From Hyphomicrobiales bacterium (lineage in GTDB: Bacteria > Pseudomonadota > Alphaproteobacteria > Rhizobiales > JANPGK01): 64,000 nucleotides of DNA. Location: contig JANPGK010000004.1 in NCBI GenBank assembly GCA_031423895.1, positions 10,561 to 74,560 of the forward strand. The letters are read 5' to 3'. Of this stretch, positions 6,912 through 61,723 are shown one piece after another. The first letter of the stretch is position 1, and each line of letters opens with the position of its first letter. Under the pieces are notes generated by a model. The model had not been told where the DNA came from. It did no database searches and saw only the letters and a program-made list of their open reading frames with translations. The translations under genes were made by a program, and so were the position numbers.

Positions 6912-6945
6912 AGTTTAGGTGTGAAGCGGGGGCTAAGTTTCTGCT

Positions 6946-7024
6946 GTCATCCTGAACGTGAGTAAAGGATCTCCAGCCGATTGAGTTCAATCTCAAGGAG
7001 ATTCTTCGCTGTGCTCAGAATGAC
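6946..7024. repeat. Family-A palindromic repeat, copy 1 (intergenic, after flhA)
   Basis: Termini GTCATCCTGA....CAGAATGAC with internal AAGGATCTC / GGAGATTCTTC. Related copies are at 31184 and 44462. Confidence 0.75.
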
Positions 7025-7104
7025 AAGCGCCACGAATGTCAAAGCGTGATGAGTGAAATGACAACTTTCTTTCCATCCCATCAAAACCCTGTTAACCTCC
7101 CCCT

Positions 7105-12699: not shown

Positions 12700-12735
12700 T
12701 GTTCCACGAATTAACGAGACAGCGCTCTTTATTTC

Positions 12736-12803
12736 GTCATCCTCGGGCTTGACCCGAGGATCTACTTAAAGTGGATGGTCGGATCAAGCCCGACTATGAC
12801 GGC
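12736..12803. repeat. Family-C repeat, copy 1 (intergenic between trpA and accD)
   Basis: Sequence GTCATCCTCGGGCTTGACCCGAGGATCTACTTAAA..GATGGTCGGATCAAGCCCGAC. A longer inverted copy is at 44698..44786. It shares the GTCATCCT terminus with family A. Confidence 0.7.
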
Positions 12804-29495: not shown

Positions 29496-30296
29496 ATGGC
29501 CCCTAAAATTATCATACCCGACACATTGGCCATCCGCGTGCAGGGGCTGTTTGTCACGCTGGGCGGCCACGAGATTTTGAATAATCTGGATTTAGACGTG
29601 CAAAAAGGCGAAATATTGGGCGTTGTGGGGGCGTCTGGCACGGGCAAGTCGGTGCTGCTGCGCGCCATATTGGGCATGGTGCCGCGCACTGCACGCACGT
29701 TGGGTGTGCTGGGCGTGGATATGCTGCGCGCCGATGATGCGCAAAAAGTGGCGATCGGCCAGCGCGTGGGATTGTTATTTCAGCAAGGCGCATTGTTTTC
29801 GGCGCTCACTGTGCAGCAAAATGTAGAGTTTGTGCTGAAGGAAACCTATGCGCTCAGCGCTGCCGATGTGGCCGATTTGGCGCGGATGAAAATTGCGCTG
29901 GCGGGCCTGCCCATGAGTGCCTGCGATAAGTTTCCATCGCAGCTTTCGGGCGGGATGATCAAGCGGGCGGCGCTGGCGCGTGCCATTGCGCTCGACCCTG
30001 AAATTTTATTCCTCGATGAGCCCACCGCAGGGCTCGACCCGATTGGCGCGCAGGAATTTGATATTTTGGTGCGCGATTTGCAGAAAACACTTGGCCTCAC
30101 CGTGTTTATGGTGACACATGATTTGCACTCGTTGTTTTTGGCGTGTGACAGAATTGCAGCATTGGGCGATAAGCGCGTGCTGGTGTGCGATACGATGGAG
30201 AATGTGCGTGCATTTGACCATCCGTGGATTCACAGCTACTTTAACGGACCGCGTGCGGCATCGATTCATACAGACGGATTTTTGGAGTCGCATTAA
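29496..30296 (+). CDS. MlaF-like ABC transporter ATP-binding protein
   Basis: Walker A GASGTGKS, signature LSGGMIKR and Walker B ILFLDEP. I preferred ATG 29496 (GGAG upstream) over the GTG at 29487. Confidence 0.85.
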   Translation: MAPKIIIPDTLAIRVQGLFVTLGGHEILNNLDLDVQKGEILGVVGASGTGKSVLLRAILGMVPRTARTLGVLGVDMLRADDAQKVAIGQRVGLLFQQGALFSALTVQQNVEFVLKETYALSAADVADLARMKIALAGLPMSACDKFPSQLSGGMIKRAALARAIALDPEILFLDEPTAGLDPIGAQEFDILVRDLQKTLGLTVFMVTHDLHSLFLACDRIAALGDKRVLVCDTMENVRAFDHPWIHSYFNGPRAASIHTDGFLESH

Positions 30297-31157
30297 ATGG
30301 AAACTACGGCTCGCCACACATTGATAGGGGCTTTTGCCATCGCTGTTTTGGCGATTGGCTTGCTGTTTCTCTATTGGGTTGCGGGTGTGAAAACCAACCG
30401 TGATGTAAAAGAATTTTATGTGATTTTTCAAGGTTCGGTCAGCGGCCTTTCGGAAGGCGGGGGCGTGCTGTTCAACGGCTTGAAGGTGGGTGATGTGCGC
30501 AAAATTGCGCTCAACCCTGGTAATCCTACTGAAGTGCGCGCGTTGATTAAAGTGGATCGGCTCACGCCCGTGCATACTGATACACGCGTGTTGCTGAGTT
30601 ATCAGGGCCTCACGGGGGTGGCATCGATTGAGCTAACAGGCGGCAGCCCTACCGCCCCATTGCTGAAATATGGCAGCGATGGCGACGCCGCAACCATGTA
30701 TGCCGAGCGCACATTGCTGCAGAATATTACCGACAGGGCGCAAGAAACCATCACCCGCGTGAATGAGCTGTTAATTAAGTTTGACGCGGTTGTGGCCGCG
30801 ATCGACCCCACCAGCATTGGCAAATTCACCACCGCATTGGGGGATAGCGCGCCTGCGATCCAAAATTTGATGCAGGATTCCGCCGCTACCGCTAAAAAAT
30901 TAAATGCCTTGGCAGATAAGCTCGACACGATCACCACGCAACTTTCGGGCGATAAGGGCAAAAAAGGCCTAATCCCAGAAGCCACCGAAACCATTGTGAG
31001 CATTCGCAAAACCGCCAATAGCCTGAATAAAATGTCGGATACCGACCTCAAAAGCCTGATGATTGACACCCGCAAAACGGTGAATTCGGTGGATCGGTTT
31101 GTGAATAGCTTAGAGCGCCACCCCAACCAGCTGATTTTTGGCAAGCCGGCGGAGTGA
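30297..31157 (+). CDS. MlaD/MCE-family substrate-binding protein
   Basis: N-terminal TM anchor, then an MCE domain (FYVIFQGSVSGLSEGGGVLFNGLKVGDV), then a helical C-terminus. Confidence 0.8.
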   Translation: METTARHTLIGAFAIAVLAIGLLFLYWVAGVKTNRDVKEFYVIFQGSVSGLSEGGGVLFNGLKVGDVRKIALNPGNPTEVRALIKVDRLTPVHTDTRVLLSYQGLTGVASIELTGGSPTAPLLKYGSDGDAATMYAERTLLQNITDRAQETITRVNELLIKFDAVVAAIDPTSIGKFTTALGDSAPAIQNLMQDSAATAKKLNALADKLDTITTQLSGDKGKKGLIPEATETIVSIRKTANSLNKMSDTDLKSLMIDTRKTVNSVDRFVNSLERHPNQLIFGKPAE

Positions 31158-31183
31158 GTGAGTCTTCATTCTCAATAATCGTT

Positions 31184-31265
31184 GTTATCCTGAGGCATCG
31201 CCGAAGGATCTCTTGCCGCCTCAGGCTCCGTTCAGGGAGATCCTTCACCTGCGGTTCAGAATGAC
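31184..31265. repeat. Family-A palindromic repeat, copy 2 (intergenic between mlaD and the RND gene)
   Basis: Sequence GTTATCCTGAGGCATCGCCGAAGGATCTC...GGGAGATCCTTCAC...TTCAGAATGAC. Degenerate extra terminus-like motifs flank it (TCATTCTCA at 31167, CTCAGGATAGC at 31275). Confidence 0.75.
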
Positions 31266-31290
31266 ATGAAAGTTCTCAGGATAGCTGCGA

Positions 31291-37833: not shown

Positions 37834-40800
37834 TCACGTAATTGTGTTGAGGGGGATGGATTCGATGTGCCCTGAATGAGTCCATACAATTCGCGCTTCA
37901 ATGGGGTGTGGCGTGGGCAGTGTGTGCAGCAATAATTGCGCATATAGCGCCAATTGTGCGGCATATTGGGGGGCTATCCCGCCCGTATAGGCTTCAGTTT
38001 TAAAGTCGATGATCACATGGGCTGTGGGCGTGATGGCCAGCAGATCAATACGGCCAGAAATCAATTGTTGAGTGCCATTAACGAGCAATTCTCCTAAAAT
38101 AGGTAGCTCGGCATATCGTTGCGGCGCATTCCACACATCGGCCAATGCGGGCAGGGCAGCGGTACGGCGCACTTCAGTGATGATACCCTGCGGCGCGCCT
38201 GCATGTGCGTGTGGGTCAGTTTTGGTGATATAGGCCACCAATTGCGCATCATCGGGCAGGTTGGGCACCAATTCGAGCAATTTGTGGATGATGGTACCAC
38301 GCAAGGCTGGGTTTTTGATAGACAGGCTCCCCACTTGTGGGGGAGCTGCTGAGTGTAACGAAGCTGAGGGGGGTATTCTTTCTTCATATTTAGATACGTT
38401 ACCCCCCTCAGTCACGCCCAACAAAAAATTGGGCGCGCCAGCTCCCCCACAAGTGGGGAGCATAAGTAAAGTAGCCGCTTCACGTACGCTTATGCTCGAT
38501 GGCAAAATAATGCTGTGCAAGGCCGCGGGGGGGGGCAGTTGCGCATCACACTCAGCGGCAGATATGGGCAATTGCGCGGTGGGCACAGTGAGGGGCGCAG
38601 TTGTGGTGCGCAAGCGTTTGAAGCTGCCGTGAGGCGTTTCGATCACCTCATGCGTGCCACCCCATGCCTGCACTGCGGCGTCTATTGCGGTGTACCAAGC
38701 GGTAGGCATTGCGATGTCGATGGTGTTTTTTTCCAGTGCATTGGCTTGCTTCTGCCCTGCAGCACCAAAAATAAACACTCTGTCGCGCGCGCGGGTGAGT
38801 GCCACATAGAGCAGCCGCATGGTTTCAGCATATTCTGCGGTGTTGTGCGCGTCTTTTGCCGTGGTGAAGGCGGGCGGCGCAGCGTGTTTATGCACGGTTA
38901 AAATTGGGGTGTTGCACTGCGTAAACAAAATTTTAGGCGCTTTTTGCTGGCGATAATCAAAGCAGCTGTCGGCCAATATCACCACGGGCGCTTCCAGCCC
39001 TTTGGCATTGTGCACGGTCAGAATGCGCACGGCGGTGCTGGCTTCGCTCATTTCGCGCTTTAAAATATGCGATGTAGTGCGGATCCACTGGGTGAAGCTG
39101 AACAGATCGGGCACATTTTGTTCCTCAAATTTTAGGATCAAGCCTAAAAATTCATCGAGAATTTCATGCACATCGGTGCCCATGCGTGTAGCAAACGCCA
39201 CACGCCCATTGGTGTTGCTGAGCATATGCATGAAAAATTCATAGGGTCGCGTGGTGAGCGCCAAGGCTTGCAAATGGTGCAATTGTGCTAATGCAGCGCC
39301 CCAATGTGGCTGCTCATGTGCGCGCGCCTCAAGCGCTTGCAACAACGTGCCGCTGCGCTGCGGCGCAATCGCAAGGATGTCGTCTTCATTGAGGCCCAAT
39401 ATTGGCGATTTCAGCGCGCAAGCCAGTTGCAAATCATCCTGCGGCAGCAGCACACAATCGGCCAACGCCAGCAGATCCTGCACGGCAATATTGTCGGTGA
39501 GGGTCAGCCGATCTGCACCGCCAACCGGGATGCCAGCATCGCGCAGTGCTTTCAGCAGCGTCTCAAATATGCCCTTACGCGCGCGCACCAATATTAAAAT
39601 ATCGCCTGCGGTGATGCGACGCGGGGCCCCGTTTTTGCCCTCCACCACATGAGGCGCGGTGAGTAGGTCTTGGATGGTATAAATAATTTGCTGCACCATT
39701 TTATGAATGGCATTGCGGGGCTGCTGCGGCGCCGTGGCGGCCTCCCATGTGAGTGTAATTTCGTGCTTGGTGTCGGGCAGGCACAGCGGCCACACATCCA
39801 CACAGCCAAAACTGCTGCGGCGCTGGGTTTCATGGATCACGGGTGTGGCATCGGTGGTGAGCTGCTGCGCACGCGGGCGCGGGGCAAACACACCATCCAC
39901 AAGCGCCAACACATCGGGAGTGGTGCGGAATGAAATTTGCAGCGGCTCTTCATGCCATTCCAGCTGCGCATCGGTAATTTTATGAGCAAATGTGGCCTTC
40001 ATATGGGCAAATCGCTCTGGCGCTGCGCCTTGAAAACGGTAAATTGATTGTTTCTCATCCCCCACCACAAACACAGTGCGGGTTTTAGCGCGGCCCGCAT
40101 CGCCCACAAAAAACTCACTCGAAAGTTGCCAGATGATGTCCCATTGCGCATGGCTGGTGTCTTGGGCTTCGTCCACAAGAATGTGATCGATCCCCCCATC
40201 GAGTTTGTAATGCACAAAGGCGGCATCGGCACGCAGCAATAAATTGCGGGTTTTGAGCACCAAATCGTCGAAATCGAGCATGCGTTGCGCGGTTTTGGCG
40301 GCTTGATAGTGTTTCATCACCTCAATGGCAACCGTAATGGCACTGAGGCTGGCCTCAAAGGCGCGGAAATTATACACATGGGTGCGCAGTTCCAACAATT
40401 GGGCGATGCAGGTCTCATAAAACAGGGCATGTTCAGGGAATTGTGTCACAATGTCCTTGGTGGGGGATCGTTTTTTCAGCAGCTCGCCTGATTGCGTTTC
40501 CACCAATTTCATCAAACCCGCAAACCGCGTGTTGAACGACGATGCGGCCAGGCTTTCCCGCAGATATGTGGCAATTTTGGTGTCGTGATCCTTGCCCGTT
40601 TCAAAAATTTGGCATAGCCAGTGCACCATTTTTGGATTTGTCAGCGGAATATCGCGCAGCTGTTTTGCCAGCGTTTCAAGGGTTTGCGTGGGCGGCACAT
40701 CTAGCGTGGCCCGTAGCGCCAATTCAAGCGATTGCGTGGTGTGGTTTAACATGAAGCTGAGTAGCGCATCGCGTTTAGAAAGCAGCCCTTGCAGGTGCAT

Positions 40801-41376
40801 TTCTAGCTGCGCACTGCCCAAAATACTGTGCAAACGCTTTAAATCTGCATGAAATGGCGAGCCAATTTGGCCCGCGCTGCGATAGAATTTTTGGAAAGCG
40901 CCCGCCCATAATGTTTGTATTTGGGGTTCATCTAGCAGTGTGAAACTTGTGGGCACAGGGGCTTCAAACGGAAATTGCTGCAGCACACGCTCGCAAAATG
41001 CATGAAGCGTTTGAATTTTCAAACCGCCAGGCGTTTCTAGCGCTGTGGCAAATAATCTGCGGGCATGGCGCAATTGGCGCGAGCTGGCAGGCGCATTGGT
41101 TAGGGTTTCAATGGCAATTTTCAACGCGGCATCATCTAAATTGACCCAAATTTTGAGGGTATCAAACACGCGTGCGGCCATTTCAGCTGCAGCGGCGCGG
41201 GTGAAGGTGAGGCACAGAATTTTTTCAGGAGGTGTGCCTGCCAATAGTAAGCGGATCACCCGCTGCGTGAGCACGTGCGTTTTGCCCGAGCCTGCATTGG
41301 CGGCCACCCACGCGCTGGCGTTTGTATGCGTGATCCGCGCGATTTTTTGGGCGTGGCTGCTCAAGGGGTTATTCAT
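37834..41376 (-). CDS. addA: Double-strand break repair helicase-nuclease AddA
   Basis: UvrD-type helicase motifs (AANAGSGKTHVLTQR, VDEAQDTS, ..) and a C-terminal PD-(D/E)XK nuclease region. I placed the start at ATG 41376, overlapping the addB stop by 8 nt. The longer ORF-track start at 41532 would run 160 nt into addB. Confidence 0.9.
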   Translation of the reverse strand: MNNPLSSHAQKIARITHTNASAWVAANAGSGKTHVLTQRVIRLLLAGTPPEKILCLTFTRAAAAEMAARVFDTLKIWVNLDDAALKIAIETLTNAPASSRQLRHARRLFATALETPGGLKIQTLHAFCERVLQQFPFEAPVPTSFTLLDEPQIQTLWAGAFQKFYRSAGQIGSPFHADLKRLHSILGSAQLEMHLQGLLSKRDALLSFMLNHTTQSLELALRATLDVPPTQTLETLAKQLRDIPLTNPKMVHWLCQIFETGKDHDTKIATYLRESLAASSFNTRFAGLMKLVETQSGELLKKRSPTKDIVTQFPEHALFYETCIAQLLELRTHVYNFRAFEASLSAITVAIEVMKHYQAAKTAQRMLDFDDLVLKTRNLLLRADAAFVHYKLDGGIDHILVDEAQDTSHAQWDIIWQLSSEFFVGDAGRAKTRTVFVVGDEKQSIYRFQGAAPERFAHMKATFAHKITDAQLEWHEEPLQISFRTTPDVLALVDGVFAPRPRAQQLTTDATPVIHETQRRSSFGCVDVWPLCLPDTKHEITLTWEAATAPQQPRNAIHKMVQQIIYTIQDLLTAPHVVEGKNGAPRRITAGDILILVRARKGIFETLLKALRDAGIPVGGADRLTLTDNIAVQDLLALADCVLLPQDDLQLACALKSPILGLNEDDILAIAPQRSGTLLQALEARAHEQPHWGAALAQLHHLQALALTTRPYEFFMHMLSNTNGRVAFATRMGTDVHEILDEFLGLILKFEEQNVPDLFSFTQWIRTTSHILKREMSEASTAVRILTVHNAKGLEAPVVILADSCFDYRQQKAPKILFTQCNTPILTVHKHAAPPAFTTAKDAHNTAEYAETMRLLYVALTRARDRVFIFGAAGQKQANALEKNTIDIAMPTAWYTAIDAAVQAWGGTHEVIETPHGSFKRLRTTTAPLTVPTAQLPISAAECDAQLPPPAALHSIILPSSISVREAATLLMLPTCGGAGAPNFLLGVTEGGNVSKYEERIPPSASLHSAAPPQVGSLSIKNPALRGTIIHKLLELVPNLPDDAQLVAYITKTDPHAHAGAPQGIITEVRRTAALPALADVWNAPQRYAELPILGELLVNGTQQLISGRIDLLAITPTAHVIIDFKTEAYTGGIAPQYAAQLALYAQLLLHTLPTPHPIEARIVWTHSGHIESIPLNTIT
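38326..38461. repeat. Inverted pair of family-B1 modules, located inside the addA coding sequence
   Basis: GCTCCCCACTTGTGGGGGAGCTG..CTGAGGGGGGTATTC, a 19-nt spacer, then the reverse-complement module GTTACCCCCCTCAG..GCTCCCCCACAAGTGGGGAGC. The AddA frame stays open across it. Confidence 0.8.
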
Positions 41377-44300
41377 CTTCGCCGCCTTCATCTTCCTCGG
41401 CCAGCACACCCCATTCGGCAATGCGCGCCAAATGGTCGTAATCGGTGTAGCTCGCGATTTTCCCGCCATATGGTTTGACATAAAACGGGTGGGTTGGGGT
41501 GCACATGGCCTGCAGCGCCACATGCACGCCATCGAGAATATTGGTGCGCATTTGCGCTAAGGCCTCGCCTTTGCCCATGGGCTGCGATGCTTTTAGTTGC
41601 GTGAAATTATCGGTGAATTTGATGTATTCCAGTGCATGTATGGAAGTGAGTGTGCCGTTTTTCTCAAAATTTTGGGCATGTGCCATTTCCCCCAGTAGCA
41701 CCAATTGTGGATAAAGCCCCGCATTCACTAGTTTTGTGGCGGGCACAACCCCTGTTTTAAAATCGCTTATCACAATGCCATCGCTGCGCTGTTCCACGCG
41801 GTCGGCCCGGCCATGAATGGTGAATTTCTCCCCCATAATATCCCACTGCATGCGATACGACACTTCGCAGCGTACTTTATGCGTATGCTGGCGGCGAGCC
41901 TGTTCAAACGCAATGATGCCATCGACCACGCCATGTAATTGCAGCCGCCATAAAATCCGTTCTTTATCTGGCAAAACGCTGGTGTGGGTTTCAATCTCAG
42001 TCAATACGCTGTTGTGCAGCGCCTGTGTGTCGTCGCTCCACTGTGTGGCCGCCAGCTCAACAATTGTGTGGATGAGGGCCCCGCGAATGCGCGCATCGGG
42101 CAATTGGCCAATGGGTTCAAGAGGCTTCAAGCCCAACACATATTCGGCATAAATGGCATAAGGGTTGTGTAGCAGGGTTTCAATTTTGGTGACAGAAAGC
42201 GTTTTAGGCCGCAATGCCACAGCAGGGCAAGGGGTTGGTGCGGCAATGGGCGCAAAATTATGCGTGGCGTTGTGCGCGCGCACCTGTGCCAGCACTGCAT
42301 TGCCACGGCTGCGCCACGGTTCAAAGCTATGTGTGCCCATCACCGCCGAAATGCGCTGCAAAAACCGCGATGGCAGTGTTGGTGCGCCGCCCTCGCGTAC
42401 CGATCGCGTGAGAATAATGTGGTTTTGCCCCATAAATTGTGCAAAATCATGCGCTGAAAGCGCAATGCGCCGCTCTGGCATGGGCAAACCAATGGCACTG
42501 CGGAGTGCTCGCCCCAGCCACACATCGGGCATATTGGCTGGCGGCCACATACCTTCATTGAGCCCACCCAAAATCACCGTGTCGAATGTGTGCAAACGCG
42601 CTTCCAACGCGCCCATCACCACAATGCGGCTGTTGTGCAGGGGGGGCGGTAATGTGGGCGCCATGTTCAAAATTTGGGTGAGAATGGCGGGGTATGCCGC
42701 GAATGGGATTAAAAATTGCGTGGCTTGGCCAGTATGCGCATCGTGAATGGCTTGCAACACTGTGGTGTGAGCGGTGTCGGCATCATAGTTTAAAACTTGG
42801 CATGCTGTCGCGCCAAGTTGAAGACACGCTTCGCGGTTCGCTATCGCTCCTTCCAAATTTTGAGAAAATTTGGGGATATCTTCATCCTGTACAACGGGCA
42901 CGAGCGCGGCAAAAATTTGGGCAAATTGCTCATTGTAGGTGGCAAAAGGTTGGTGCGGATTATCGGCAGTTTGCAAGGCCAAAAATGGTGCAATTGCCGC
43001 CAAATAGCCTTCTAAAACCGCCTGCGCGTTGTGCCAATCCTCTAAGGTGAGTGATTTTTGCGCGTGGGTCAGCTGATGCGGCTTTGCACCTTCGCAGTGA
43101 GCATTTTGCCATGTTTCAAAATTATGAGCAAGCGCCGCATTCCAATCGCCAGCAGGGGCAATGCCGCGAAATAGCGCGCATTCCAGCGCGGTAACAGCTG
43201 TTTTTAGATCCAAAACGCCTTCAACCTGCACCATAGGGTGACGCAAAAATGCCAGTGCGGCTGCGGGAGATTGTGGCGCGGCTAGCGCATCAAGCAACAG
43301 GCGGGCGGCACGCCCTGGCATGGTGTGCAACAATGGCAACCCGCCAGAATCGGGCACATCAACTCCAAATGCCTGCAAATGCGCACACACGCGCCGCGCT
43401 AGGGTGCGGTTTGGCGTGATCAGTGCCGCAGTTTCATGAGGTGTGGCGGCTGTTAGGCGTAATTGCAGCGCAATGCTCAGCGCTTCCTCTTCCTCATGTG
43501 CAGCCTCTAAAAGCGTGACATGCGCGGTGGCGTTCATCAATTCTGCATCGCATTGCTGCACGCGCCATGAATGCCATTCATCGGTGGTGCTGGCGGGCTG
43601 CAAGGCATAAGACACAATGGTTTCGAGCAGCGGTGGCGGGGTTATACGCCCTAAAATCGGCACATCGGCAGGGTGGGCAATATGCAGAGTAGTGAGCAGC
43701 CGCTTGAGGTGAATTTGCGGGTGAGTTTCGGCCTGCCCAGCAGCGCCAATGGCCGCCCAAGCGGTTACGCTCAGCTGCGTGTCAAGCCCCGGAATGATGA
43801 GCGTGCCATATGGGCTGCGGGCAATCGCGGCCAATAGCTCCGCAGTGGCAGGCGTTGAGCCAGTGGAGCCCGCCGCGATGACGCGGCCAAATTGTCCCGC
43901 CTCAATGCGCTGCGCCATGGCATGGATGGCTTCATCCCAGGCCACAATTGGGTCTTGCAGGCTATGGTCCTGCAAAAATTGCGGCCATTGCTGTAGTACT
44001 ATGTTCAAAAAACCGAGGTTGAGCTCGTGGCTGCCCAAAAATTCGGTGGGAATCATGTCTGCAATTGCGTGCGCACTCACATGCTCAAGCGTAAGCTGGT
44101 CAAGCGTATTGGCCAAATCTTGCGCCAGCGCAACACATTCAGCATGGGAAATCTGTATAAAAATTGGGTCGTTTGGGTTGTGCCATTTTGGTGTGTGGCC
44201 TGCATTCACCGCCGCATATACCGCCTGTTTCCATTGCAAAATTAAGCGTGCCAGCACCCATACGCGCTGGGTGGGTGTAACCGTCGTTTCTGATATATCT

Positions 44301-44668
44301 TCATGTTCCAGCCCAATTTCACCCACATCCCGCACGGGAATGATGCGTGGCAAAATTAGGGCTTGCGTACCAGCTTGCCGCAATAATTCCAGCTCAAAAT
44401 TTTTGCATGCACGCCGAGTGGGGAAAAATATGGTGGTATTGGCGAGTGCGAATGGGCTTATGTCATCCTGAGGCTGCGCCGAAGGATCTCCCAGAATGTG
44501 AGCACAATCGGAAGGAGATCCTTCACTCCCGTCTTCGCTACGCTTCGCCGAGGCAAGTCGTTCAGGATGACAGCTGCTGTTGGTTTGCCCACCCAACACA
44601 AACTGTGCCAATGTTTCAAAAAACGGCCGCGACGCGGGGATGGTGTAGATGTTGGGTGCGTGAGGCAT
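41369..44668 (-). CDS. addB: Double-strand break repair protein AddB (alphaproteobacterial type)
   Basis: About 1100-aa ORF upstream of and overlapping addA. The N-terminus is MPHAPNIYTIPASRPFFETLAQ...FFPTRRA and there is a C-terminal PD-(D/E)XK-like region. Start ATG 44668 (ORF-track start 44719 lies inside repeat C2). Confidence 0.9.
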   Translation of the reverse strand: MPHAPNIYTIPASRPFFETLAQFVLGGQTNSSCHPERLASAKRSEDGSEGSPSDCAHILGDPSAQPQDDISPFALANTTIFFPTRRACKNFELELLRQAGTQALILPRIIPVRDVGEIGLEHEDISETTVTPTQRVWVLARLILQWKQAVYAAVNAGHTPKWHNPNDPIFIQISHAECVALAQDLANTLDQLTLEHVSAHAIADMIPTEFLGSHELNLGFLNIVLQQWPQFLQDHSLQDPIVAWDEAIHAMAQRIEAGQFGRVIAAGSTGSTPATAELLAAIARSPYGTLIIPGLDTQLSVTAWAAIGAAGQAETHPQIHLKRLLTTLHIAHPADVPILGRITPPPLLETIVSYALQPASTTDEWHSWRVQQCDAELMNATAHVTLLEAAHEEEEALSIALQLRLTAATPHETAALITPNRTLARRVCAHLQAFGVDVPDSGGLPLLHTMPGRAARLLLDALAAPQSPAAALAFLRHPMVQVEGVLDLKTAVTALECALFRGIAPAGDWNAALAHNFETWQNAHCEGAKPHQLTHAQKSLTLEDWHNAQAVLEGYLAAIAPFLALQTADNPHQPFATYNEQFAQIFAALVPVVQDEDIPKFSQNLEGAIANREACLQLGATACQVLNYDADTAHTTVLQAIHDAHTGQATQFLIPFAAYPAILTQILNMAPTLPPPLHNSRIVVMGALEARLHTFDTVILGGLNEGMWPPANMPDVWLGRALRSAIGLPMPERRIALSAHDFAQFMGQNHIILTRSVREGGAPTLPSRFLQRISAVMGTHSFEPWRSRGNAVLAQVRAHNATHNFAPIAAPTPCPAVALRPKTLSVTKIETLLHNPYAIYAEYVLGLKPLEPIGQLPDARIRGALIHTIVELAATQWSDDTQALHNSVLTEIETHTSVLPDKERILWRLQLHGVVDGIIAFEQARRQHTHKVRCEVSYRMQWDIMGEKFTIHGRADRVEQRSDGIVISDFKTGVVPATKLVNAGLYPQLVLLGEMAHAQNFEKNGTLTSIHALEYIKFTDNFTQLKASQPMGKGEALAQMRTNILDGVHVALQAMCTPTHPFYVKPYGGKIASYTDYDHLARIAEWGVLAEEDEGGEDE
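42792..42873. repeat. Family-D structured repeat, copy D2, inside the addB coding sequence
   Basis: Hairpin 1 is AAAACTTGG-N12-CCAAGTT. The core is ACGCTTCGCGGTTCGCTATCGCTCC. Hairpin 2 is CCAAATTTT-GAG-AAAATTTGG. Confidence 0.7.
44462..44571. repeat. Family-A palindromic repeat, copy 3, inside the addB coding sequence (N-terminal region)
   Basis: GTCATCCTGAGGCTGCGCCGAAGGATCTC...GGAGATCCTTCAC...TTCAGGATGAC, with perfect 10-bp terminal inverted repeats. Confidence 0.75.
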
Positions 44669-44697
44669 GTGGTTTTCACGTCCATAATACGTCATGG

Positions 44698-44786
44698 TCG
44701 GGCTAGTAGACCCGACCATCTTCTTTTAAAGTAGATCCTCGGCCATCCGCTTTCGCCCGAAAGCGGGCTACAGCGAGACAAGCGCC
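44698..44786. repeat. Family-C repeat, copy 2 (inverted relative to copy 1), immediately upstream of addB
   Basis: The reverse complement reads GTCATCCTCAGG...GAGGATCTACTTTAAA..GATGGTCGGGTCTACTAGCCCGAC, matching 12736..12803 apart from a larger internal hairpin segment. Confidence 0.7.
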
Positions 44787-44811
44787 TGAGGATGACACTA
44801 TAAAACGCGAA

Positions 44812-45402
44812 TTATACAATCTGTGCCACTTGCTCAAAGCTGAGGCGTGGGCCACGTGGGTGCATGTTTTCAGCATCACCATAGCCAATATTGCAAATAT
44901 AGTTCGATTTCAGCCCAGTGCCTTTGAAGAATAATTTATCCACGGCGGCGTTATCAAAGCCCGACATTGGGCCGCAATCGAGCCCCAAAGCGCGCGCAGC
45001 AAGGATGAAATACCCACCCTGCATCGAGCCATTGCGGAAGGCCGTTTCATGTGCGGCGGCGGTATCGTTCACATACCAGCTTTTGGCGTCTACATATGGG
45101 AACAATGTGGGTAAATGCTCAAAAAAGTTCATGTCGAATGAGATGATGGCGGTGATCGGTGCATCAATAGTTTGTTGGCGATTGCCTTCCATCAGCGCGG
45201 GCAATAATTTATTTTTACTGCGTTTGGTTTTGAGAAATGTAATGCGGATGGGCGAGCAGTTCACACTGGTGGGCGCCAAGTTCACATATTCCACCAAGCG
45301 GCGCAATGTGGCTTCTTTGACCGATTTTTTCTTCCAATGTTTGAAACTGCGCGCTTCTGTAAATAGGGTTTCAAATGCTTTTGCGCTAAGTGGTTTTGCC
45401 AT
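44812..45402 (-). CDS. Nitroreductase-family protein (RutE/malonic semialdehyde reductase-like)
   Basis: 196-aa ORF. The N-terminus ..FTEARSFKHWKKKSV..LAPTSVNCSPIRITF.. is typical of the RutE-like nitroreductase subfamily. Confidence 0.75.
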   Translation of the reverse strand: MAKPLSAKAFETLFTEARSFKHWKKKSVKEATLRRLVEYVNLAPTSVNCSPIRITFLKTKRSKNKLLPALMEGNRQQTIDAPITAIISFDMNFFEHLPTLFPYVDAKSWYVNDTAAAHETAFRNGSMQGGYFILAARALGLDCGPMSGFDNAAVDKLFFKGTGLKSNYICNIGYGDAENMHPRGPRLSFEQVAQIV

Positions 45403-59075: not shown

Positions 59076-61589
59076 TCATGCTGCAGCAGATTTTTTTGCT
59101 TTCACAGGCGCTGAGCCCACTTCTAATGGTTTGATCGGGAAATAGCAGTGCACTTTTGTGCCTTTGCCCAGTTCCGACTCAATTTCAATGTGGCCTTTAT
59201 GCAGCTCTACAAAGGCTTTCACAATGGAGAGCCCTAATCCAACACCACGGTGCTTGGTGCCTTGGCCATGGGTGACAAACCGGTCGAACACGCGGGCAAT
59301 TTCCTCGGGGGCAATGCCTTGGCCTTCATCTTGGACGGTAAAACGAATGGTGTCTGTGTTGCGAATGGCTTCAACTGTTACCATTTGGCCAGAGTGTGAG
59401 AAGCCAACTGCGTTGGTGATGAGGTGCGTAAGAATTTGCTGCAAGCGGTGGGTGTCGGCTTCAAACTGGCCAATTTTTTCATCCACCACCACACGCAGGC
59501 CAATCTGTTCAGCTTCAAACTGCGGTTTGAGTTGATCTGTAACCTGCGCAATTGCGGTAACAGGGTTAATTGCTTCAAGCTCGAGCGACATAATACCAGC
59601 GTCGATGGTAACGAGATCAATAATTTCATTGATAATGGTTAGCAAAGATGAAGAGGATGACGAAATATACTCGAGATAATTGGCTTGTTTTTTGTTGAGT
59701 TTGCCTGTTTTTGGGTCGGACAGCAATTGGGTGAACCCAATCACATTGGTGAGCGGGGAGCGCAGCTCATAGGAAATATGCTGGATAAAGTCGTTTTTCA
59801 GGGTGTGCGCAGCTTCAAGCGCCTCGTTACGCTCGGCCAAAGCGCGGCGCATTTGAGTGGCGGCGGTGGCATCCATAAAGGTGAGTAATGTGCCACCATC
59901 GGGCAGCGGCAGTGCCGCCCATTCTAAAATGCGGCCATCGATGCCTTCGGCTTGACCTTGGGCAGAAACACGCTGAGAATTAATGGTGGTGATGTGCGCT
60001 TTGAGAATGCTCCACAGGTTTTTATCTGGGAATGCTGCGCGGCACAGGTTGAAGACGTCTTCCACGCGCATATCAGGCTGAATTTGTGATGGCTCAAGGT
60101 GGCAATGGCTTAAGAACGCGGGGTTAATGAGGCGCAATCGGCCATTGGAACCGAACACCACCACGCCTTCAGTGAGGGCTTCGAGCGTTTCATGCTGTAG
60201 CCGCATCATATGGTTATATTGGGTTTCGATCGAAATTTGCTGGGTGACATCTTCATAGAAATAAATCACGCCACCAGCGGGGTTTGGGTTGGCGATCATA
60301 CGAATGGTGCGCCCTTGTGGCAAATGCCACCAATCTTCTTGCACTGCATCCGCGCGATAAATATCAAGGTGTTGGGTGCGCCAGCGCTTATAATCCGCTT
60401 GTTCAGGCAATAAGCCATGTTCGCGTAAGTGATCGAGAAAGCGGGATTCCGTGGGCTGTTCGGCAATAAAGCTGGGGTTCAGGCCCCATAATTTTTCAAA
60501 GCTGGCGTTGGCAAACACCATTTTTTGGTCGCGCCCAAACACCGCAACCGCCAATGGAATATGCTCCAATGTGCGCTTATGGGCATTGAGCTGGCGTTCT
60601 AAATCTTGTGTGCCCGCCAAATAAGGGGTTACATTGATCGCCATACCCATAGATCCCGCATCGGTGCGGGTTTCAAACACTTCCAGCACGCAGCGGTTGG
60701 AGGCCATCACGCCATTGAGGCGGCTTTTGCAAATGCCTTTATTGGCAATGTCTTGTGCGATCAACGCGCGCCCTTCGCTATCGAGCAGCTCAGTTTGTGT
60801 GGCCACAACACGTTCAGTAGACGTACTCTCCACAGCCTCGGCATAGGCCAAATTCACCCATATTAACTGGCCTTGCGTGTCACGAATCCATGCAGGATGC
60901 TGGCTGTTGGCAAAAAATTGGTGGTCTTGAATCGCACTCATTTGCGTTGTATTTTGTGCACGCAATGCTTGAGATGGAGCGTTTTGCTGGGTGTCAATCG
61001 CTTGAGCCACACGAAAACACACGATAATATCGGCACCTTGCGCGGTGCCCGACGCAATCAGCTTTTGATGAGAGGTGGTGTTCACTTCAAATGAGAATGT
61101 GTCCCCCGCAATGCGCAGCATTTCAATGCCAACGCTCAATGCGTCTTGGTCTGCACTATTGAGCCATTCCCATTTTGGGATGACGAGATGGTTCTTTGGC
61201 AGGTTATCAATGATCTTCACATCACCTAGCACTTCAGCAACGGGGGAGCGGCCAGTCCATATCACATAGATGAGGCCCGACTGCATCAAAGTGCGTTCAA
61301 GACGCAAAAGCCGTGATTTGAGCACCGAAGTGTTCATTTGTGTACTGTCGTGCCACTGCATGCGCATATTGCGCTGTTTCCAATACAAGCTGGCGATAAA
61401 AAATGTAAAACCACTCACACCAACGAGCAGGCCTGTCATAATCGCAGAATAGTCGGGGGCTTGCGCGATGGGTTCGATCGACTGGGCCCAAGTTGCGCTG
61501 AGAGGGGCGCACACTGCCAAGCATAGACCTGTGCCTATGCGCTGCGCGCGTTTCCCCAGTATGCTTCTCTTTGGAAGCTGAATCTTCAT
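59076..61589 (-). CDS. Membrane-anchored multi-PAS sensor histidine kinase
   Basis: Signal/TM segments at the N-terminus, PAS-like repeats, an H-box (HISYELRSPLTNVIGFTQLL) and an HATPase domain (GLGLSIVKAFVELHKG). Confidence 0.85.
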   Translation of the reverse strand: MKIQLPKRSILGKRAQRIGTGLCLAVCAPLSATWAQSIEPIAQAPDYSAIMTGLLVGVSGFTFFIASLYWKQRNMRMQWHDSTQMNTSVLKSRLLRLERTLMQSGLIYVIWTGRSPVAEVLGDVKIIDNLPKNHLVIPKWEWLNSADQDALSVGIEMLRIAGDTFSFEVNTTSHQKLIASGTAQGADIIVCFRVAQAIDTQQNAPSQALRAQNTTQMSAIQDHQFFANSQHPAWIRDTQGQLIWVNLAYAEAVESTSTERVVATQTELLDSEGRALIAQDIANKGICKSRLNGVMASNRCVLEVFETRTDAGSMGMAINVTPYLAGTQDLERQLNAHKRTLEHIPLAVAVFGRDQKMVFANASFEKLWGLNPSFIAEQPTESRFLDHLREHGLLPEQADYKRWRTQHLDIYRADAVQEDWWHLPQGRTIRMIANPNPAGGVIYFYEDVTQQISIETQYNHMMRLQHETLEALTEGVVVFGSNGRLRLINPAFLSHCHLEPSQIQPDMRVEDVFNLCRAAFPDKNLWSILKAHITTINSQRVSAQGQAEGIDGRILEWAALPLPDGGTLLTFMDATAATQMRRALAERNEALEAAHTLKNDFIQHISYELRSPLTNVIGFTQLLSDPKTGKLNKKQANYLEYISSSSSSLLTIINEIIDLVTIDAGIMSLELEAINPVTAIAQVTDQLKPQFEAEQIGLRVVVDEKIGQFEADTHRLQQILTHLITNAVGFSHSGQMVTVEAIRNTDTIRFTVQDEGQGIAPEEIARVFDRFVTHGQGTKHRGVGLGLSIVKAFVELHKGHIEIESELGKGTKVHCYFPIKPLEVGSAPVKAKKSAAA

Positions 61590-61723
61590 GCGAACGTCCC
61601 CGAATCACATTCAACTTGCCTGATTTGCGCGCGTCCGCAAAGAGTCCTTACTCATTATTTACGGTTTATTCGTAGTTTTTTTTGATTTATTTTTATGGCA
61701 TATTTTTATATGGCTTTTAGCGG

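Follow-up and report, generated by a model that had tools for sequence, protein, structure and literature searches.

The window analysed here is a 64,000-nt stretch of contig JANPGK010000004.1 (positions 10,561 to 74,560) from a Hyphomicrobiales bacterium (GenBank assembly GCA_031423895.1). Its minus strand encodes an alpha-type addB, the gene for subunit B of a double-strand-break repair nuclease, and a 112-bp unit at 44461-44572 lies in frame within this gene. The unit belongs to a repeat family that we call family A and is an inverted dimer of two hairpin arms, each with a TGTC tag. The gene and the parts of the unit are as follows.

41369-44668, minus strand: addB, double-strand-break repair nuclease subunit B, alpha type; 1099 aa from ATG 44668
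44461-44572, no strand assigned: family-A element in addB, inverted dimer of two tagged hairpins; codons 33-70, 37 residues net
44461-44490, plus strand: arm 1, TGTC tag, hairpin ATCCT-GA-GGC-TGC-GCC-GA-AGGAT, CTC tail (cmsearch with covariance model R1, 31.1 bits, E 3.8e-5)
44491-44514, no strand assigned: inter-arm spacer, ~24 nt, length varying among copies (from the sequence)
44515-44572, minus strand: arm 2, TGTC tag, ATCCT-GA-[37-nt inner segment]-GA-AGGAT, CTC tail

The terminal inverted repeats are perfect (GTCATCCTGA at 44462-44471, reverse complement at 44562-44571), as an earlier note on this DNA had claimed, but they grow by one base per side to 11 nt (TGTCATCCTGA/TCAGGATGACA, spanning 44461-44572), which corrects the length of 110 bp given there to 112 bp. 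The internal inverted repeat described in the same place is likewise perfect over 11 nt (GAAGGATCTCC/GGAGATCCTTC, at 44481-44491 and 44514-44524). GTCATCCTGA occurs three times in the window versus 0.06 expected (50-fold over chance), and a 13-mer with up to 2 mismatches seven times versus 0.63 expected. Arm 2 is of arm 1's type with an enlarged loop, and its ends are perfectly complementary to arm 1; it is picked up by the structural pattern alone (44517-44571, inner 37 nt). As DNA, arm 1 folds into the expected stem, internal loop and stem. The complete element is predicted to fold with -53.2 kcal/mol as RNA (z -4.0) and -24.9 kcal/mol as DNA (z -2.8).

A BLASTN search of the window with the unit recovers both intergenic copies that the earlier note had placed at 6946 and 31184.

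6945-7025, no strand assigned: family-A intergenic dimer, 81 bp, 34 nt past the flhA stop (cmsearch, sequence, flhA annotation)
31183-31267, no strand assigned: family-A intergenic dimer, 85 bp, between convergent genes, one for an RND permease (cmsearch, sequence)

Arms of the copy behind flhA are found by cmsearch at 6946-6973 (plus, E 2.1e-5) and 6998-7024 (minus, E 1.9e-8), those of the other at 31184-31212 (plus, E 0.0022) and 31237-31265 (minus, E 4.2e-5). The latter copy is flanked by open reading frame (ORF) ends at 31157 and 31291, with stops ~25 nt away on each side. The addB copy is 75% similar to the intergenic copies over 72 nt and 90% over the 30-nt arm. All three are inverted dimers; the tag is TGTC or TGTT in the intergenic copies, and in the addB copy TGTC occupies 44461-44464 and, read on the opposite strand, 44572-44569. 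Stop codons are absent from two of the three frames of a single family-A arm, whichever strand is read, and the numbers of open frames are four of six for the addB copy and 0 and 2 for the intergenic ones. No target-site duplication flanks any of the three copies (flanks ctta..gctg, ctgc..agcg and tcgt..tgaa). Terminal inverted repeats are present and target-site duplications absent, and we rejected identity as a miniature inverted-repeat transposable element (MITE). The proposal of a repeat-family element embedded in addB stands, with the element better described as an inverted dimer of tagged hairpins of the repetitive extragenic palindromic (REP) type than as a MITE bounded by terminal repeats.

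The addB reading frame and the AddB protein

The minus-strand ORF 41369-44719 reads ..PFFETLAQFVLGGQTNSSCHPERLASAKRSEDGSEGSPSDCAHILGDPSAQPQDDISPFALANTTIFFPTRRA.. through the element and contains no stop, in agreement with the earlier note. The first 17 residues of this longest ORF (MVGSTSPTM...) are encoded by a different hairpin repeat, at 44688-44722, and are probably untranslated; the likely addB start is ATG 44668 (MPHAPNIYTIP), M18 of the longest ORF. A public protein library contains this version, a 1099-aa protein that begins at M18 and has an identical stretch. Counted from ATG 44668, the element extends from the first base of codon 33 to the first base of codon 70, in phase 0. As 112 cannot be divided by 3, addB must have gained 111 nt (37 codons) on balance; either one base at an end of the unit is native or the target lost one base.

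To compare AddB N-termini, we aligned hits to the AddB query with MAFFT; ~20 rows cover the region. These orthologues have 0-11 residues between the end of the 'L..G.L' helix and 'PLALA..T...PTRRA', versus ~43 here, which bears out the ~10 residues given in the earlier note, and none of the ~20 rows spanning the region has a homologous segment of such length. The 32 residues preceding the element align with the conserved AddB N-terminus, and the alignment to the TIGR02786 profile begins only at residue 69 (profile position 32), past the insert. No ATG, GTG or TTG codon lies in frame between the element and FFPTRRA, in line with the earlier note. A translation start downstream of the element is unlikely, because such a start codon is missing and because the conserved, modelled N-terminus is encoded upstream of the element.

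In an AlphaFold2 model of AddB residues 1-481 (mean predicted local distance difference test score, pLDDT, 78.8), strand β1 (7-10) and helix α1 (16-26) have pLDDT values of 83-89, and helix 72-76 together with strand 78-82 (β2) has values of 86-93. Residues 29-68 between them mostly fall below 50. The model matches superfamily 1 (SF1) helicase folds, including AddB chain B of 4CEI and 3U4Q. The low pLDDT and the fold match together place the extra residues in a loop of the first RecA-like domain, and the model suggests that the ~37 residues encoded by the insert are probably disordered and exposed.

The gene is intact: the whole 1099-codon frame is open, the C-terminal nuclease motifs are present, and the protein scores 695.7 bits against TIGR02786 (addB_alphas; cut-off 486.5). 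Directly downstream, addA is intact as well (TIGR02784, 947.7 bits versus a cut-off of 860.75). AddB most likely still works.

The longest addA ORF (37834-41532, minus strand) overlaps the addB 3′ end by 164 nt; its profile alignment begins only at residue 66, so translation of addA probably begins ~55-65 codons after the first ATG. Among 5.8 billion proteins searched, those closest to AddB share only 36-39% identity with it. The source is an alphaproteobacterium with 52% G+C from a sparsely sampled lineage: in the collections searched, no FlhA relative exceeds 67-68% identity and no AddB relative ~39%. In a phmmer search against 1.84 billion representatives, the 41-residue insert peptide, a query too short to inform, clearly matched AddB itself only. 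An 869-aa protein in the representative library (P0153) contains 11 separate stretches that match residues 1-15 of that peptide, SSCHPERLASAKRSE; it may come from a gene or pseudo-ORF that traverses an array of such arms.

The hairpin unit in other genomes and its GIY-YIG neighbours

We scanned one genome per species (596 Gb) with the pattern GTCATCCTGA-N6-12-AAGGATCTC and obtained matches at at least 120 loci in many phyla; about 30 chance matches are estimated for its 19 fixed bases. The matches listed come from Acidobacteriota, Chloroflexota, Bacteroidota, Omnitrophota, Bacillota, the candidate phyla radiation, Cyanobacteria, Nitrospirota, Planctomycetota and Verrucomicrobiota, and likewise from Alpha- and Gammaproteobacteria. 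Of 136 arms among these matches, 93 have a gap of 8 nt with the sequence GCGNAGCG (variants ACGAAGTG and GTGAAACG), and an inverted partner, in most cases 1-100 nt downstream, accompanies 79 of 133 arms. The prevailing length and sequence of the gap and the frequent partners show clearly that the matches are not random.

Covariation was analysed in 32 partner arms that had not been selected by the scan pattern (set A1). Compensatory changes occur at all seven intra-arm Watson-Crick pairs, 97.8% of cells are paired, and none of 500 shuffles reaches the observed values; G1, T2, C3, G9, A10, A19 and C25 are invariant. Sequences such as ATTCT..AGAAT, ATGCT..AGCAT and GTCCT..AGGAC occur in many partner arms, which retain their own stem in this way and lose pairing with the other arm. 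Thus, the conserved object is a unit of ~27 nt, (T/C)GTC-ATCCT-GA-GC-GNA-GC-GA-AGGAT-CTC, and not a long hairpin. Its stem ATCCTGAGC/GCGAAGGAT has nine positions, seven Watson-Crick pairs and two conserved G·A pairs. The family consensus has a 3-nt GNA loop, most window arms have loops of 3-4 nt, and the tail is CTC. Covariance model R1, which was built from these partner arms of other phyla and includes no window sequence, recovers five of the six family-A arms in the window (cmsearch, E 1.9e-8 to 2e-3).

Insertion in frame recurs outside addB. Family-A dimers lie in frame inside isoleucyl-tRNA synthetase (ileS; locus L115, 1-2881, minus strand; TIGR00392, 826.9 bits) and inside MurB of a Micavibrio metagenome-assembled genome (L040), where the match to the MurB hidden Markov model (HMM) is split at the insert. 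A full-text literature search for the exact arm sequence or its peptide returned unrelated primer matches only.

Clustering of the ORFs within 400 nt of arms in the 120 scan loci listed revealed uvrB (four loci) and GIY-YIG genes (three loci) as recurrent neighbours and no recurrent transposase-like neighbour. In one locus (L066) two arms exactly enclose a gene for a 96-aa GIY-YIG protein (PF01541, 55.9 bits), and in two others (L093, L041) arms flank or adjoin a GIY-YIG gene. For the reverse test we took 80 metagenomic loci with genes for relatives of the 96-aa protein. In the 284 kb of these loci the covariance model finds 250 arms at E <=0.01; by the structural pattern, an arm lies <=500 nt from the gene in 76 of the 80 loci, and arms lie on both sides in 55. 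Arm density is 4.0 per kb near the GIY-YIG gene versus 0.12 per kb further off, a local enrichment of ~34-fold. A second set of arms, taken from beside GIY-YIG genes (n = 102), covaries again (99.4% paired). This enrichment points to family A as the cognate hairpin of a GIY-YIG subfamily, an assignment we make from genomic association despite the misfit to a published hairpin motif described below. An NCBIfam search with the associated GIY-YIG protein returned no specific family.

Several loci show further detail. In L066 (3301-3722), from a Chloroflexota metagenome-assembled genome, another inverted repeat, AAACACCCCCC / GGGGGGTGTTT, encloses the arm-gene-arm unit directly beyond the tags. 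The Chloroflexota loci L009, L021 and L094 show the same CCCCACCC-TGTC junction, which may be a lineage-specific extension or a preferred target. In L093 (4570-5520) tandem arrays of family-A dimers with a period of ~140 nt lie on both sides of the GIY-YIG gene, and the two arms differ within each dimer, ATTCT..AGAAT being combined with ATCCT..AGGAT. The uvrB neighbours come from different phyla (L005, L029, L068 and L071; 4 of the 120 scan loci listed), and in L029 a uvrA-like ORF begins just downstream of the family-A element; this adjacency recalls the reported bias of tagged REPs to excision-repair genes.

The window also contains dimers of a second type, family B.

44688-44797, no strand assigned: family-B dimer just upstream of the addB start (sequence; folds -10.1 kcal/mol, z -5.1, and -16.8 kcal/mol, z -3.5)
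12735-12801, no strand assigned: family-B intergenic dimer (regular-expression match; fold -10.1 kcal/mol, z -5.6; sequence)

Arm 1 of the dimer at addB, CGTC-ATGGTCGGG..CCCGACCAT-CTTC, encodes the spurious MVGSTSPTM extension of the longest addB ORF, and arm 2 reads TGTC-ATCCTCAGGC-[40-nt inner hairpin]-GCCGAGGAT-CTAC. This dimer occupies the gap between the upstream gene, which is of the malonic semialdehyde reductase type and has its stop at 44812, and the start of addB, and two repeat dimers thus lie within 340 bp at addB. The dimer at 12735-12801 consists of a first arm CGTCATCCTCGGGCTTGACCCGAGGATCTAC, a 7-nt spacer and an inverted CGTCATAGTCGGGCTTGATCCGACCATCCAC. Its arm at 12735-12765 fits the published Ssn-related-motif (SRM) pattern, as no other window arm does, and it has the outer stem of family A, ATCCT/AGGAT; the common stem suggests that the two families are related. 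Loose structural-pattern 'arms' at 30224-30275, 30345-30398 and 61546-61595 were rejected as chance on inspection. Generic GTC-tagged hairpins are not more numerous in the window than in shuffles (16 versus 20.6), only the specific families standing out, and Rfam at gathering thresholds matches no family in the whole window.

Probable origin and consequences of the insertion

We consider it probable that the segment is a non-autonomous, CGTC/TGTC-tagged palindromic repeat of the REP type, a dimer inserted in frame in addB and presumably spread via an Ssn-type nuclease, that is, a small single-domain GIY-YIG protein such as those described by Chenal et al. (2025; PMC11893778). The dimer consists of two inverted ~27-nt hairpin units around a short spacer, each unit comprising the 5′ tag (T/C)GTC, the ATCCT/AGGAT stem with tandem G·A mismatches, a small inner stem-loop and the CTC tail. 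The arms would fold on single-stranded DNA (ssDNA) as it arises in replication, repair or uptake, and a cognate GIY-YIG nuclease of the Ssn type, with its gene elsewhere in the genome, would recognise them and cut beside the GTC tag; we infer that the activity of this nuclease, or the repair that ensues, mobilises gene-less dimers and spreads them in trans. One copy would have landed in the N-terminal helicase-like domain of AddB, in the loop that joins helix α1 to strand β2, where its length and frame kept addB open, so that ~37 extra residues would be translated. The insert may be neutral for AddB, and within genes only frame-keeping copies in tolerant loops would survive.

Several points weigh against this account. 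No Ssn nuclease is known to move DNA, the published function being restriction of transforming ssDNA (PMC11893778). The 64-kb window contains no GIY-YIG gene detectable by tblastn or by a profile HMM over six frames, and no family-A arm, consensus or window, fits the SRM pattern HGTCWYN(0-2)YYVSBRHN(0-5)WNVSBRGN(0-2)RNCYNB. Arm 2 of the addB copy, with its 37-nt loop, is missed by covariance model R1, and single arms are only weakly stable by nearest-neighbour DNA folding (z -1 to +0.5), with parameters that omit sheared G·A pairs. Finally, the insertion is read from distant orthologues, the nearest database relative being 67% identical for FlhA and 36-39% for AddB.

An unlikely alternative is that another enzyme acting in trans, an HUH tyrosine transposase of the IS200/RAYT (REP-associated tyrosine transposase) type or a DDE transposase, moved or made the dimers; the GIY-YIG gene would then just happen to lie where hairpins are frequent, or would rely on them for its own regulation or homing. 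REPINs, whose dimers are built in the same way, are presumed to be moved by RAYTs (PMC3116915, PMC3337134). GIY-YIG enzymes form no covalent DNA intermediate and have no documented transposition (PMC11893778), and only 3 of the 120 scan loci listed contain a GIY-YIG gene. Yet the same loci yielded no recurrent transposase-like neighbour within 400 nt, no RAYT or IS200 gene flanked by CGTC units is reported (PMC3733652), and the tag is GTC, whereas RAYT substrates carry GTAG. The GIY-YIG association, in contrast, is very strong and two-sided (76 and 55 of 80 loci; ~34-fold), and we favour spread by an Ssn-type nuclease.

The strong RNA fold of the element (-53.2 kcal/mol) makes an effect on addB expression possible. 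That the element has disabled or reshaped this expression, leaving a recent pseudogene, a downstream start, or an mRNA hairpin at codons 33-70 that serves as an RNA-level brake or RNase III site, we regard as very improbable. The z-score of the fold (-4.0), the second hairpin dimer directly upstream of the start and a published caveat that many N-terminal 'intragenic' REPs may be elements of the 5′ untranslated region (5′-UTR; PMC3733652) speak for it. The open 1099-codon frame with an intact addA downstream, the 32 codons before the element that still encode the conserved β1-α1 N-terminus, and the lack of an in-frame start codon between the element and the FFPTRRA strand speak against it. A native, lineage-specific AddB loop that resembles the repeats by chance, for which one could cite the variable loop length of 0-11 residues and a comparison with distant orthologues only, is effectively refuted by the perfect terminal and inner inverted repeats (11 nt each), the similarity of the intergenic copies (75% over 72 nt, 90% over the 30-nt arm), the match of arm 1 to the covariance model from other phyla (E 3.8e-5) and the 50-fold excess of the terminal 10-mer.

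In-frame insertion of tagged palindromic repeats is already documented for the superfamily, including alphaproteobacteria and recombination and repair genes. The modest novelty here lies in alpha-type addB as the host gene, in a hairpin sequence type that matches none of the peptides listed for the four published families, and in the link of family A to a GIY-YIG subfamily missed by the published motif. The addB reading is corrected to its likely start and a repeat-derived 37-residue loop, with no pseudogene call, and alpha-type AddB joins the recombination and repair proteins decorated by tagged palindromic repeats. One hairpin type, with a GTC tag, tandem G·A pairs and a GNA loop, is nearly unchanged in many bacterial phyla. 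Its loci offer more candidate nuclease-hairpin pairs for the ssDNA tools proposed in 2025, and a large, clean data set on whether these nucleases move DNA. A bolder idea, which we hold to be doubtful, is that the family-A pair and the small GIY-YIG gene form a pan-bacterial ssDNA mobile element driven by the GIY-YIG protein, whose repeated landing in repair genes is not accidental. If it were true, GIY-YIG-driven transposition would be a chemistry not yet described, with gene-less dimers spreading within genomes, and landing in addB, and elsewhere in recBCD, uvrABC and dnaE2, would reflect targeting of ssDNA-processing loci or selection for altered repair enzymes.

Comparison with known repeat and nuclease systems

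Bacterial MITEs resemble family A in being small and noncoding with terminal inverted repeats. Unlike them, family A has no target-site duplication (3 of 3 copies) and no related DDE insertion sequence, and its 'terminal inverted repeats' are structured hairpin units. Rickettsia palindromic elements of the RPE-1 type (Ogata et al., 2000) are reportedly repeats of ~100-150 bp that lie in frame within housekeeping genes and appear in the proteins as surface loops; no enzyme is known to be associated with RPE-1. Their sequence family and host differ from those of family A.

REPINs and their RAYTs (Bertels and Rainey, 2011; PMC3116915) share with family A two inverted REP hairpins with a spacer in a non-autonomous unit of ~100 nt, a high copy number per genome, and an enzyme gene that is present once and lies between repeats. 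They differ in the GTAG tag and the HUH tyrosine transposase, family A having a GTC tag and no recurrent transposase-like neighbour among the loci listed, and REPINs are lineage-specific in sequence, whereas the family-A arm is nearly unchanged across many phyla. With GTC instead of GTAG and no recurrent transposase-like gene among the listed neighbours, we do not assign family A to the REPINs.

The closest repeats are the CGTC-tagged REP superfamily of Di Nocera, De Gregorio and Rocco (2013; PMC3733652), which includes dRS3 of Neisseria and RPE-4 and RPE-6 of Rickettsia. According to these authors, its members have an unpaired CGTC or TGTC tag (CCTC is accepted), an 8-9-bp stem starting A-T, T-A, a 4-5-nt loop and a short unpaired tail with the consensus CCA; they occur mostly as inverted dimers with 20-100-nt spacers, mostly in alphaproteobacteria, and their intergenic copies hug gene 3′ ends. 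Many copies are in frame in genes, conspicuously in uvrA/B/C, recBCD, polA and dnaE2, and a Coxiella nuclease subunit B carries a REP dimer of the GTAG-3 type. The authors found neither a dedicated transposase nor a RAYT or IS200 gene flanked by CGTC units, and many of the N-terminal 'intragenic' copies may in truth be 5′-UTR elements (PMC3733652). Family A agrees in its TGTC tag, with GTC invariant in the 32 arms analysed elsewhere, in a nine-position stem that starts A-T, T-A, in its inverted dimers (three of three window copies and 79 of 133 arms listed elsewhere), in intergenic copies close behind gene 3′ ends (flhA and the convergent pair), and in an in-frame copy in a DNA-repair gene. 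It differs in the conserved tandem G·A mismatches of the stem, in the loop, a 3-nt GNA or an inner segment of up to 37 nt, and in the CTC tail. Compared by listed peptides, CGTC-1 to CGTC-4 encode VIPAKAGI, VIPGLDPGI, VIPWLDHGI and VILDGRNIEF, and family A encodes VILSEAKDL or CHPERSEGS. Alpha-type addB is not among the host genes in PMC3733652.

The NTS/SRM hairpins and their Ssn nucleases offer the closest parallel to the pairing of family A with a GIY-YIG gene. SsnA binds its hairpins, and cuts them, only when they are ssDNA; cutting depends on the three bases that precede the palindrome and binding on the C that follows it, and ssn genes are typically flanked by NTS/SRM hairpins (PMC11893778). 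The degenerate SRM pattern misses family A and the window has no ssn gene; moreover, PMC11893778 describes limiting of transformation, not insertion into genes. Family A nevertheless has GTC immediately 5′ and C immediately 3′ of the palindrome, with G1, T2, C3 and C25 invariant. It also shares the fixed orientation, the hundreds of copies, the free loop length and the arm-gene-arm arrangement around a single-domain GIY-YIG gene of ~95 aa.

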